Origin: Candidatus Desulfobacillus denitrificans
GTDB taxonomy: Bacteria; Pseudomonadota; Gammaproteobacteria; Burkholderiales; Rhodocyclaceae
Direction: 5' to 3'
Length of the DNA stretch: 64,000 nucleotides
Assembly (NCBI GenBank): GCA_017347485.1
Contig: AP021857.1
Coordinates: 1,219,390 to 1,283,389 of the forward strand
Numbering within the stretch: the first letter of the stretch is position 1; every line of letters starts with the position of its first letter. The notes under the pieces were generated by a model that was not told the DNA's origin, did not search any database, and worked only from the letters and a program-made list of their open reading frames with translations. The position numbers were made by a program, and so were the translations under genes. This document shows positions 1,208 to 60,803 of the stretch, piece after piece.

Positions 1208-1231
1208 AAAGTCAGTCCCCGCCGGACGGCG
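1208..1231 (+). repeat. Bipartite motif AAAGTCAGTC-N8-ACGGCG, perfect, intergenic
   Basis: AAAGTCAGTC CCCGCCGG ACGGCG. Confidence 0.9.
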
Positions 1232-1267
1232 TCATTGGCACGGCGGGCAAGGATCCGGGCGTTCCGG

Positions 1268-2035
1268 TCATTTTCCGCCCTTGATGGCGTACTGCATGCC
1301 GCCCTTGCCGTCCGGGGTGAACACGATGGTCAGTTCGACATCGTGGCCGCAGCCGCGGAAAGTCCACGCTTCCTCCCAGTGGCCGGCGGGCTGGTCGGCC
1401 TCCTTCGGCTCGCGCGGCGGGTGGGTGAGGCGGGTGTCGATCAGATCGGCTTCCTTGCACGCCTTGCTTCGTTTCGCCAGCCGTGCCAGGGCGGCGGGGG
1501 CCGCCGCCTTCAGGCCCTCGGCGATCTGCTGCATGGAAGCGTTCGTGGTACCTGGGATTTGCGGCCGCGCTTCGGGTTTTTCGCCCCTGCGCGCGACGAA
1601 GACGGCATTGTAGGTCATGCGCTTGCCGCAGCGCTCGAAGACGTAGCGATGCTGCCAGCTCCCCGCGATGGGGTGAGGCTGGCCGCCGGGGAACTCGATG
1701 CCCCTGAGCAGAAACAGGTTGAGCGGCTGGATGTTGTAGGGGCCCTTGCAGTCTTGCTGCAGGCCGAGCTTCCTGTCCCATTCGCGGCCGGTTTCATACA
1801 GGGCGGCGATCTGCTCCTTGCCGTAGAGGTAGGCGGTCAGGCGCGAAGGCTGGCGGCCGTCTTCCGATTCGGCGGCGGAGGCTGGGGCGGTTACCGGGGC
1901 GGGGGCGCTTGCCGGAGCGCCCGGCGGTTCTTTCTTGCCACAGGCGGACAGGCATGCGCAGACCGTGACGACCGGCGCAACGGCGGCAAGCCATCCTGTC
2001 CTGGGAAGGGAGGCGCTTCGGCTTGCCGTCGTCAT
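1268..2035 (-). CDS. Hypothetical lipoprotein (about 255 aa)
   Basis: ATG at 2035, signal peptide with LSAC lipobox, Pro/Ala linker, two similar W-x(6)-CG segments. Confidence 0.75.
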   Translation of the reverse strand: MTTASRSASLPRTGWLAAVAPVVTVCACLSACGKKEPPGAPASAPAPVTAPASAAESEDGRQPSRLTAYLYGKEQIAALYETGREWDRKLGLQQDCKGPYNIQPLNLFLLRGIEFPGGQPHPIAGSWQHRYVFERCGKRMTYNAVFVARRGEKPEARPQIPGTTNASMQQIAEGLKAAAPAALARLAKRSKACKEADLIDTRLTHPPREPKEADQPAGHWEEAWTFRGCGHDVELTIVFTPDGKGGMQYAIKGGK

Positions 2036-2049
2036 CGGCGCAGTTTGGC

Positions 2050-2577
2050 CTACTCGGGCAGGGGTTGCAACTCCCGCCGATAGCGCTCGGCGCGTTCGCT
2101 GTATTGCCGGCAGCCGAGGCGTATCGCCGCCGCCTCCTCGTCGGAGAGTTGCCGCACCACCTTGCCCGGCGAACCGAGCACCAGGGAACGATCGGGAATG
2201 ACCTTGCCTTCCGGAACGAGCGCGCCTGCGCCGATCAGGCATTCCTTGCCGATCACCGCGCCGTTGAGGACCACCGCCTGGATGCCGACCAGCGAGCCCT
2301 CGCCGATGGTGCAGCCATGCAGCATGGCCTGGTGGCCGACCAGCACCCGGCCAGACAGCGTTAGGGGAAAGCCCGGATCGGCATGCAGCACGGCGCCGTC
2401 CTGCACGTTGCTGCCGGCGCCGATGGTGATGAGGTCGCTGTCGCCGCGGAGGACGGCGCCGAACCAGACGCTGGCGCCGTCCTCCAGCACCACCGTGCCG
2501 ATCACCGAGGCGCTTTGCGCGACCCAGGCATTGCCGCGCAGTTCGGGCCTGCGCTCGCCCAGTGCGTACAGCGCCAT
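2050..2577 (-). CDS. Gamma carbonic anhydrase family (YrdA/PaaY-like hexapeptide repeat) protein
   Basis: [30 protein letters not shown] motifs. Confidence 0.93.
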
Positions 2578-2578
2578 G

Positions 2579-58830: not shown

Positions 58831-58840
58831 GTGTTTGGCT

Positions 58841-59524
58841 TTATCCACCGCCGCTCCTTTTGTCCTCGACGACTTCGCCGTCGACCAGGCGGATGCGGCG
58901 CTGCGCCCGCGCGCCGATCTCCGGGTCGTGGGTGACGACGGCGACGGTGCCGCCCTCGTGGTGCACGCGCTCGAGCACCGCCATCACTTCCTGGCCGGTG
59001 TGGCGGTCGAGGTTGCCGGTCGGCTCGTCGGCGAGGATCAGCGTCGGCCCCATCGACAAGGCGCGGGCGATGGCGACGCGCTGGCACTGGCCGCCGGAGA
59101 GCTGGTCGGGGCGGTGGCCGGCGCGGTCCTCCAGGCCGTACTCGGCGAGCAGCCGGTCGAGGCGCCGCCGCCGCTCGGCCGGCTCGATGCCGGCGAGCAC
59201 CATCGGCAGCTCGATGTTCTGCTCGGCGGTGAGCCGCGGCACGAGGTGGAAGAACTGGAAGACGAAGCCGATGGCCTCGCGCCGCACGCGCGCCAGCTCG
59301 TCGTCGGCGAGGCCGGTGACGTCGCGGCCGTTCAGCTCGTAACGGCCGGCGTTGGGCCGGTCGAGGAGCCCCAGCACGTTGAGCAGGGTGGACTTGCCCG
59401 AGCCCGACGGCCCCATGATGGAGAGGTACTCGCCCTGGGCGATGTCGAGGCTGACGCCGCGCAGGGCATGCACCTCCTCGCCGCCGACGCGGAAGACGCG
59501 CTCGATGCCGGTGAGGCGGATCAA
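58841..59524 (-). CDS. ABC transporter ATP-binding protein (LolD/MacB type)
   Basis: GPSGSGKST, LSGGQCQR, LADEPTGNLD, VTHD. Confidence 0.96.
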   Translation of the reverse strand: MIRLTGIERVFRVGGEEVHALRGVSLDIAQGEYLSIMGPSGSGKSTLLNVLGLLDRPNAGRYELNGRDVTGLADDELARVRREAIGFVFQFFHLVPRLTAEQNIELPMVLAGIEPAERRRRLDRLLAEYGLEDRAGHRPDQLSGGQCQRVAIARALSMGPTLILADEPTGNLDRHTGQEVMAVLERVHHEGGTVAVVTHDPEIGARAQRRIRLVDGEVVEDKRSGGG

Positions 59525-59529
59525 GCTTT

Positions 59530-59619
59530 CCCCTCTCCCCAGCCCTCTCCCCGCAAGCGGGGCGAGGGAGCCGGTTTGCTCCCCTCTCCCGCTCGCGGGA
59601 GAGGGGTCGGGGGAGAGGG
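59530..59619. repeat. CCCTCTCCC-type double-hairpin repeat, copy 3 (solo)
   Basis: First 39 nt identical to copies 1 and 2. Confidence 0.9.
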
Positions 59620-59630
59620 CCGGGCGCCGC

Positions 59631-60803
59631 TCATGGCTTCTTGGCGGCGGGTTTTTCCTCGGCGACCGCGCGGACGCCGGCCTTGACGCCGGCGCGCTCC
59701 AGCGAGGTGACGACGCGGTCGCCGCGGGCGAGGCCGCCCTTCGCCTCGGTGAATTCCCAGTTGCTGAGGCCGGCCTCGACCTTGCGCTCCTCGAGCACGC
59801 CGCCCTCCGTCAGCACCAGCACGCGGCTGCCGGGCATCAGCGCCGAGGTGGGGATGCGCAGCACGTCGTCGCGGGCGTCGACCACCACCTCGATGTCGGC
59901 GCTGTAGCCGACCAGCAGATGGCGGATCTCGGCGGGCGACTCGAAGTCCACCTCGACCTCGACGGTGCGCGCCTGCTTCTCCAGCGCCAGCACGTAGGGG
60001 GCGATGCGCCGCACCTTGCCGGTGAAGTGCTTGCCGCGATAGGCGTCGAGGCTGATGCGGCCGGCCATGCCGACCCTGAGCTGGGCGGCATCCACCTCGT
60101 CGATGGGCGCCGTGACGTAGAGGCAGGCGTCGTCGATGAGGTCGATCGCCGGCAGCGTCGGGATGCCGGGCGGCGAGGGCGTCAGGTATTCGCCGACCTC
60201 GCCGTTCACCTCGGCGACGATGCCGTCGAAGGGCGCCTTGACCACGGTGCGCGCGGTGTCGGCGCGCGAGGCGCCGATGCGCGCCTGCGCCTCCTGCACC
60301 TGGGCGCGGGCCGAGTCGCAGCCGGCCTGCCGCGCCTTGGCCTCGCTCTCGGCCTGGTCGACGCGTTCCTCGGAGACGAAGCCCTTGGCGCGCAGGGCCC
60401 GCGTGCGCTCGGCGTTGCGGCGCGCGTTGTCGGCGACCAGGCAGGCTTCGCGCACGTGCGCCTGCGCCGTGGCGCGCTGCTCGAGCGAGATGCGCTCGCG
60501 CGCGGCGAGGTCGTCGTTCCACAGCTCGACCAGCACCTGGCCGGCCTTGACGCGGTCGCCCTCGCGCACCAGCAGCTTGTCGATGCGCCCGCCCATCGGC
60601 GGCGCCAGCTTGGCGCGGCGGCAGGCGGCGACCGAGCCGGCGCGCGTGTTGGCGACGGTGGTTTCGACGCGGCCGGGCTCGGCGGCGGCGACGGTGACGG
60701 CGATGGGCTTCGGCCGCGTCAGGGAGAAAGTCAGTCCCGCCAGCACGGCGAGGACGACGGCGGCGATGAGGAGGTTGCGCAGCAGGGTTGGAGGGCGGGT
60801 CAT
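59631..60803 (-). CDS. Efflux periplasmic adaptor (MacA/HlyD family)
   Basis: N-terminal TM, biotinyl-lipoyl GGRIDKLLVREGDRVKAGQ, KAPFDGIV, IDEVDA. Confidence 0.92.
   Translation of the reverse strand: MTRPPTLLRNLLIAAVVLAVLAGLTFSLTRPKPIAVTVAAAEPGRVETTVANTRAGSVAACRRAKLAPPMGGRIDKLLVREGDRVKAGQVLVELWNDDLAARERISLEQRATAQAHVREACLVADNARRNAERTRALRAKGFVSEERVDQAESEAKARQAGCDSARAQVQEAQARIGASRADTARTVVKAPFDGIVAEVNGEVGEYLTPSPPGIPTLPAIDLIDDACLYVTAPIDEVDAAQLRVGMAGRISLDAYRGKHFTGKVRRIAPYVLALEKQARTVEVEVDFESPAEIRHLLVGYSADIEVVVDARDDVLRIPTSALMPGSRVLVLTEGGVLEERKVEAGLSNWEFTEAKGGLARGDRVVTSLERAGVKAGVRAVAEEKPAAKKP
60727..60750 (+). repeat. Bipartite motif, perfect, in the adaptor N-terminal TM
   Basis: AAAGTCAGTC CCGCCAGC ACGGCG; antisense, encodes AVLAGLTF. 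Confidence 0.9.

Follow-up and report, generated by a model that had tools for sequence, protein, structure and literature searches.

A bipartite word with a fixed eight-base spacer, dispersed over the chromosome of Candidatus Desulfobacillus denitrificans and some related Rhodocyclaceae: a candidate DNA uptake sequence

A stretch of 64,000 nucleotides from the genome of Candidatus Desulfobacillus denitrificans (Rhodocyclaceae; contig AP021857.1, referred to as C1, positions 1219390-1283389), hereafter the window, contains repeated copies of a word made of two half-sites, AAAGTCAGTC and ACGGCG, separated by exactly eight variable bases (N8). The genome, designated G000, is a single contig of 3,145,360 bp with 66.7% G+C. 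The word recurs hundreds of times along the whole chromosome and in several related genera, and it appears to have been written into resident DNA. By analogy with the DNA uptake sequences (DUS) of Neisseriaceae and the uptake signal sequences (USS) of Pasteurellaceae, the reading that we prefer, at a little under an even chance, is that the word is a DNA uptake sequence marking self DNA, and that preferential uptake followed by recombination maintains it. No published description of the word, or of uptake sequences in this group, was found in literature searches.

The full form of the word has 25 bp, aAAAGTCAGTC-yCnGCRRs-ACGGCG, of which 16 bases are fixed (10 + 6). When up to two mismatches were tolerated, 16 matches were found in the window (12 perfect, one with one mismatch and three with two mismatches), compared with 0.06 expected from dinucleotide-preserving shuffles. 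They are exactly the 16 sites given in an earlier note made from the letters of the window. All 12 exact occurrences of AAAGTCAGTC in the window are followed by N8-ACGGCG. The copies are listed below by window position; the gene calls behind the descriptions are crude (based on G+C content at third codon positions, GC3) and contain errors, and the site at 44611 was wrongly labelled by the caller.

1208..1231 (+): perfect copy, intergenic
4688..4711 (-): copy with two mismatches, within a gene
6079..6102 (-): perfect copy, within a gene
25826..25849 (+): perfect copy, intergenic according to the crude gene calls
28161..28184 (+): perfect copy near a gene end
33468..33491 (+): copy with two mismatches, within a gene
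34278..34301 (+): perfect copy, 10 bp past a stop codon
34492..34515 (+): perfect copy, intergenic, 214 bp from the preceding copy
35757..35780 (-): copy with one mismatch (AAATTCAGTC), intergenic
37977..38000 (-): perfect copy at the 3' end of the gene 35922-38003
41449..41472 (-): copy with two mismatches, within a gene
44611..44634 (+): perfect copy within the oxidoreductase gene 43990-45228 (+), read as K-V-S-R-C-E-T-A
51135..51158 (-): perfect copy, genic according to the crude gene calls
52876..52899 (-): perfect copy, within a gene
55953..55976 (+): perfect copy, within a gene, antisense
60727..60750 (+): perfect copy by a gene end, antisense

Genome-wide, 354 perfect copies (171 on the plus strand and 183 on the minus strand), 158 copies with one mismatch and 89 with two were counted, 601 in total. 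The reversed, uncomplemented genome, used as a control, gave 0, 0 and 5 such copies, respectively. The left half occurs 416 times in the genome and is followed by ACGGCG at N8 in 354 cases. Copies with spacers of 0-7 or 9-19 bases were absent genome-wide; the control spacers N7 and N9, proposed in the earlier note, thus gave zero, and N8 is the sole spacer in the range 0-19.

According to the sequence logo, A stands at position -1 in 68% of copies; apart from this base, the flanks are unrelated and hold no information past codon periodicity. The spacer is weakly specified (yCnGCRRs), with equal preference in genic and intergenic copies. No Watson-Crick covariation was seen among the spacer positions, which argues that no hairpin is formed, and no target duplication was seen at the flanks.

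The origin of one copy could be followed at window position 44611. At least 13 related species carry the motif, with 0-1 mismatch, at the same protein columns. The outgroups, which include Aromatoleum, Thauera, metagenome-assembled genomes (MAGs) labelled Sulfuritalea, and Oxalobacteraceae, have KVVKLAPG or RVVKLAPS in these columns, with equal length and no indel. Because this outgroup alignment is ungapped, the word at 44611 arose in place by substitutions altering about five amino acids and not by insertion, which removes the reading of the word as a mobile element.

The copies are also held in place between species. For comparison within the genus, 400 kb from three carrier genomes (77-88% DNA identity to G000) were used, and the motif was found at the aligned position in other species at 80 of the 89 sites lying within alignments. 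At 28 ungapped orthologous sites, the 16 fixed bases were 94% identical, compared with 82% for the spacer and flanks (Wilcoxon p = 6e-4). Motif-poor species occur within the same genus as well (G254, G292 and G393). Judging by the identity of ComEC, ComM, DprA and ComF, G254 is at least as close to G000 as the carrier G012 is; by PilQ identity it is slightly more distant. The sites of G254 orthologous to G000 copies, sampled in 190 kb of the G254 genome, have 2-10 mismatches, with values of 67% for the core and 75% for the flanks, and no alternative consensus was seen at them. The word is therefore ancestral, is actively maintained in the carriers and decays without the maintaining force, which must be active yet is dispensable.

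The taxonomic range of the word is narrow. In an exact scan with one genome per species, contigs with multiple copies belonged almost only to MAGs of Rhodocyclaceae. Within this family, a first sample of 201 genomes (89 genera) and a later, larger set of 401 genomes were analyzed. In the first sample, the exact word is abundant in the genus of G000 and in one genome of the genus designated g80, and the left half alone brings in the genera g28 and g87 as well. Dialects of the word came out in scans that tolerated mismatches: AAAGTCAGTC-N8-ACGCCG in g87, GCGGCG or ACGGCG as the right half in g28, AAAGTCAGCG/CC-N8-ACGGCG in g26, and AAACACAGTC/AACGACAGTC-N8-ACGGCG in the genome G200. The spacing is N8 in every dialect. 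When a dialect-tolerant probe (AAANNCAGYS-N8-RCGSCG; background of 0-13 copies per genome) was applied to the 401 genomes, 8 of the 11 species in the genus of G000, 7 of 9 in g87, 2 of 3 in g80, the sole g28 genome and 1 of 2 in g26 stood out with 72-458 copies. Carriers are found in 5 of the 89 Rhodocyclaceae genera, the other 84 being at background only. No enrichment was found in about 390 genomes of 59 other families of the order (maximum 18 copies). A scan of relatives had been suggested by the earlier note; related genera do carry the motif, with dialects, and the genome counts together with these relatives bear out the view of a lineage-wide, non-palindromic signal of fixed spacing acting at the DNA level.

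As for the distribution along the chromosome, the GC skew of G000 puts the replication origin at about 3.116 Mb and the terminus at about 1.544 Mb. The copies are even over 32 chromosome bins, with Poisson-like gaps (median 3.7 kb, 3.6 kb expected), and no clustering at the origin or terminus was seen. Read 5'-3', the word occurs 277 times on the leading and 324 times on the lagging strand (p = 0.06), without replichore polarity. The mapping against origin and terminus envisaged in the earlier note therefore returned uniform density and no polarity, which argues against roles like those of KOPS (FtsK orienting polar sequences), Chi or matS.

About 60% of the copies lie within genes. Perfect copies are 37% intergenic, compared with about 17% non-coding DNA by the crude gene calls. 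The intergenic copies have a median distance of 28 bp to the nearest gene 3' end, with 45 of 147 within 10 bp. Gaps between convergent genes are enriched in copies (57 observed, 39 expected), and gaps between divergent genes are depleted (25 observed, 39 expected). Copy density climbs with local G+C (Spearman 0.54), and low-GC islands hold few of them. Four regions form the largest deserts: the ribosomal-protein/rpoBC/tuf cluster, a low-GC polysaccharide island, the surroundings of a probable rRNA operon, and an island of low GC3 by the terminus that includes a Zot-like gene. This last island (C1:1563246-1584187, about 20-40 kb from the GC-skew terminus, zero motif copies) has its Zot-like gene at 1575465-1576475, also contains a tandem repeat of 111 bp, and probably represents a filamentous prophage integrated into the chromosome.

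Close pairs of copies near 3.11 Mb were considered as possible clustering at the origin, and this was rejected, as they belong to a duplicated gene fragment. The fragment C1:3112237-3112872 is duplicated at 3115993-3116352 (about 200 bp, 89% identity) and carries two motif copies 135-144 bp apart; its truncated second copy adjoins the GC-skew minimum. In addition, five overlapping inverted pairs, offset by 9 or 22 bp (C1:101851/101860, 1356683/1356705, 1364868/1364890, 2987182/2987191 and 2988345/2988354), make palindromes of 33 or 46 bp. Like paired DUS in Neisseria, these pairs might serve as terminators.

An exact scan of 2.9 million viral contigs detected 32 stretches with the word, which is about chance for a collection of this size by a rough estimate that is not a shuffle control. 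Several of the viral contigs carry 2-3 copies at host-like density, which we take to mean that the word is present in some temperate phages infecting carriers. Special clustering in phage contigs was rejected, as the copies are consistent with a host-like density; the additional copies in these contigs are in fact more thinly spread than in the hosts.

The pattern was compared with known systems. The DUS of Neisseriaceae is a 12-mer, AT-GCCGTCTGAA, with seven further dialects, and its receptor is the minor pilin ComP. The USS of Pasteurellaceae consists of a 9-bp core, AAGTGCGGT or ACAAGCGGT, with helically phased AT-rich flanks. Biased uptake plus recombination explains the accumulation of both in their families. 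Like DUS, the word described here is present in hundreds of copies on both strands, uniformly, in genes and just past genes; it is written in place, conserved at orthologous sites, depleted in foreign islands, and varies in genus-level dialects around an invariant core. The hosts of DUS belong to the same GTDB order as G000. Reverse-complemented, the left half reads GACTGAC and has CTGA in common with GTCTGAA, the end of the DUS, which is a resemblance only. Unlike the contiguous 12-mer of DUS, the word is bipartite and extends over 25 bp, and inverted pairs are rare, with the five mentioned above.

The likeness to USS lies in the length of the signal, about 25-30 bp, in the pairing of a strong core with a further segment at a fixed distance, in the beginning aAAGT, in about one third of copies being intergenic, and in the amino acid changes that the word forces. 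The second segment is, however, a sharply specified GC-rich hexamer and not an AT tract; the sequence and the bacterial class are different, and the logo has neither a GCGG core nor AT tracts. Chi and KOPS/AIMS (architecture imparting sequences), the targets of RecBCD and FtsK, are short chromosomal words with polarity; they too occur genome-wide in coding sequence and are lineage-specific, but they have 5-8 bp and are strongly co-oriented with replication, whereas the present word has 16 fixed bases and no polarity. The matS, SlmA and Noc sites are clustered in or excluded from the Ter or Ori regions, unlike the uniform distribution across the 32 bins. Repetitive extragenic palindromic (REP) sequences and miniature inverted-repeat transposable elements (MITEs) are inserted, usually palindromic and intergenic; the copies here show no indel and no pairing and are mostly genic. 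The earlier note had likewise concluded that the word is neither an insertion sequence end nor a REP hairpin, and this holds given the lack of indels and of pairing covariation and the unrelated flanks. The USS receptor has been predicted to be ComN/PpdA (bioRxiv 10.1101/2025.06.16.659825), and sequence-specific DNA uptake is known from two bacterial families only, according to a 2025 preprint. A minor pilin of the FimT/GspH type, the class of this predicted receptor, is not conserved among the carriers studied here.

Five features are found jointly in this system: a long, exactly spaced word; writing in place, repeated hundreds of times despite the amino acid changes it costs; neutrality to strand, replication and transcription; holding at orthologous sites with genus-level spelling; and decay upon loss. 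Since these five have a joint published precedent only in the uptake sequences of Neisseriaceae and Pasteurellaceae, the uptake reading was ranked first. Marks of the DUS/USS class that were found are a copy number above chance on both strands, an even and non-polar distribution, in-place origin, orthologous sharing, and phylogenetically coherent dialects with a conserved core. In the proposed mechanism, the two half-sites, 8 bp apart, would be contacted by a DNA receptor that belongs to the transformation machinery and sits in the envelope or periplasm, and related DNA fragments bearing the word would be taken up and recombined more often. As a molecular drive, this uptake bias alone would suffice both to create the word in resident DNA through point substitutions and to preserve it. 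We infer that such a receptor exists, that it acts at uptake, and that the bacteria are transformable.

Genes for transformation were located in G000 by tblastn with E. coli queries. The core set is intact and type IV pili genes are present: ComEC is encoded at 1978129-1980465 (-) and DprA at 9063-10151 (-), and ComM, ComF, the PilQ secretin, PilT and several PilB/PilC pairs were also found. A standard minor-pilin locus (pilin, fimT, pilV, pilW, pilX, pilY1) adjoins ispH. ComEC is intact in all 26 genomes tested, PilQ is present in 20 of 20, and DprA, ComM and ComF are present in 12 of 12, the listed DprA match of the carrier G098 covering query residues 255-366 only. Pilin and competence candidates were then compared by running two concatenated queries across carriers and non-carriers.

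Several observations weigh against an uptake function. ComEA is the periplasmic DNA receptor of model Gram-negative transformers. It is absent from G000 according to searches with a hidden Markov model (HMM; HHH_3, PF12836) and tblastn with E. coli YbaV and three ComEA proteins from Rhodocyclaceae genomes as queries; the tblastn search with the latter three matched only the helix-hairpin-helix of UvrC. In an HMM search of 18 genomes, a short ComEA-type match was found in only 1 of the 10 carriers tested. Relatives free of the motif have ComEC, PilQ, DprA, ComM and ComF just as intact, and pilins of the mannose-sensitive haemagglutinin (MSHA) type are present in the motif-poor genomes G393, G315 and G080, so they do not track the motif cleanly. 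The density of one copy per 5-9 kb is five to eight times below that of DUS or USS. We know of no report of natural transformation in these uncultured lineages. Since the competence genes are intact whether a genome has the motif or lacks it, no link between them and the motif is apparent. Because ComEA and any conserved pilin receptor are absent, in which the case also departs from the DUS system with its ComP, the uptake reading was kept below one half.

No PF12836 match of any kind was found in G000, so that Tex too appears to be missing; a Tex-sized match is present in 13 of 17 other genomes tested, including two relatives of the same genus.

A number of candidates for the protein reading the word were tried and rejected. 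The pilin at 2295241-2295744 scores above the Pfam ComP_DUS cut-off (46 bits), over model positions 1-61 of 87 only. This ComP-like pilin was rejected as the receptor, which also weighs against uptake, as no full-length homologue was found in same-genus carriers, and the best homologues of this pilin (50-60% identity) sit in motif-free genomes. The same is true of FimT, PilV, PilW, PilX and PilA, the globular parts of which have no homologue at E<=1e-5 in any other genome of the comparison, same-genus carriers included. The C-terminal domain of PilY1 has no or only weak homologues in carriers and was dismissed as a conserved reader. The pilins of the MSHA type were rejected as well: carriers of the genus keep them and the motif-poor G254 and G292 lack them, but the equally motif-poor G393, G315 and G080 have them. 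The corresponding operon (C1:472437-483046) encodes an MshE-like ATPase, MshG, four prepilins and a 1297-aa LamG-repeat protein. Loss of ComEC, PilQ, DprA, ComM or ComF does not account for loss of the motif, as all are intact in motif-poor genomes. A protein with repeats like those of transcription activator-like effectors was discarded because G000 encodes no such repeat array. Synteny gaps between G000 and G254 were abandoned as a route to the reader, the synteny being too fragmented with 8% of G254 sampled; they yielded a Type I restriction-modification island and the pilA region.

The Type I restriction-modification locus (C1:1963267-1974236) encodes HsdR (1053 aa) and HsdM (550 aa) with extra genes between them. 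It is absent from G254 and is flanked by motif copies at 1963240 and 1974358. An array resembling clustered regularly interspaced short palindromic repeats is located at C1:1944513-1945496 (37-nt repeat GATTGTAGCCTTCCGGGGTGAGAGAGGGAGCTACAAC, period 67).

Uptake had also been the best guess of the earlier note, and the part that stands is that the pattern favours uptake over a segregation or nucleoid mark. The genes with which it had expected the motif to correlate did not follow it: comEA is absent from G000 and most carriers tested, comEC is present irrespective of the motif, and even species that share an identical motif do not share the ComP_DUS-type pilin.

Among the other explanations, the strongest is that the copies are sites of a lineage-specific cytoplasmic DNA-binding protein, either structuring the nucleoid or chromosome or recognizing a "self" mark for a defence or repair nuclease, and are kept by ordinary selection; we consider this unlikely, yet it deserves serious weighing. 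Proteins that bind DNA as dimers or with two domains typically recognize bipartite sites of rigid spacing, orthologous sites retain the core, and the dialects imply co-evolution with a protein. The lack of a link to competence genes and the absence of ComEA also speak for it, and the viral contigs with 2-3 copies would be expected if phages profit from a "self" mark. However, marks of this sort that are known occur in small numbers in particular regions (matS, SlmA, Noc) or else are short and polar (Chi, KOPS), whereas the copies here are uniform, non-polar and about 600 in number, and to build a 16-base word 600 times via amino-acid-changing substitutions requires a strong force per site. The system is moreover dispensable, as G254, G292 and G393 are motif-poor and the sites of G254 have decayed, and the copies shun promoter regions and follow stop codons, as if tolerated and not positioned.

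A signal for another route of DNA transfer, such as a packaging site of a gene transfer agent (GTA) or temperate phage or a relaxase site, is a good deal less probable. Export bias would give the same molecular drive and would explain the drive-like pattern without ComEA, and terminase small subunits and relaxases typically recognize long sites of this kind, non-palindromic and about 24 bp in length. Known GTAs, however, package without sequence specificity, and the probable filamentous prophage of G000 has no copies. The viral contigs point both ways: a few hold several copies, but the 32 stretches are about chance by the rough estimate.

A role at the RNA level, as a terminator, mRNA stability element or small structured RNA, is effectively excluded: the word stands in both orientations relative to transcription (167 versus 200 in genes, 61 versus 86 past gene ends), has no internal pairing, lies in genes in about 60% of cases and coincides with no Rfam family under the window copies, although many intergenic copies directly follow stop codons and the five inverted pairs form palindromes of 33 or 46 bp. 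Least probable of all, and likewise effectively excluded, is a miniature mobile element or its remnants (solo terminal repeats, REP- or MITE-like insertions), which the high copy number and sharp boundaries might suggest, since the word replaces homologous codons with no indel relative to outgroup proteins, shows no palindrome, hairpin covariation or target duplication between its unrelated flanks, is shared at 80 of 89 orthologous positions by species about 80% identical, and lies mostly within coding sequence. The window contains two structured RNA features of its own, a glycine riboswitch aptamer (55 bits) at 7055-7148 (-) and a three-tRNA cluster at 23472-23731 (+).

A bolder proposal, which is possible but rather doubtful, is that environmental Rhodocyclaceae possess a third, independently evolved uptake specificity, which would do without ComEA and rely on a receptor other than a ComP-like protein or a conserved type IV pilin. 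This would be a new molecular solution to the recognition of self DNA in transformation, and a third case would show that kin-biased transformation evolved repeatedly. The two families with known uptake specificity are both host-associated, while the carriers described here are free-living betaproteobacteria of groundwater and wastewater. If the uptake reading is wrong, 600 dispensable, co-evolving binding sites would still represent an undescribed chromosome-wide system. The dialects and the motif-poor congeners would provide natural experiments for finding the receptor, and in metagenomics the word could be of practical use as a marker for taxonomy and for assigning hosts.

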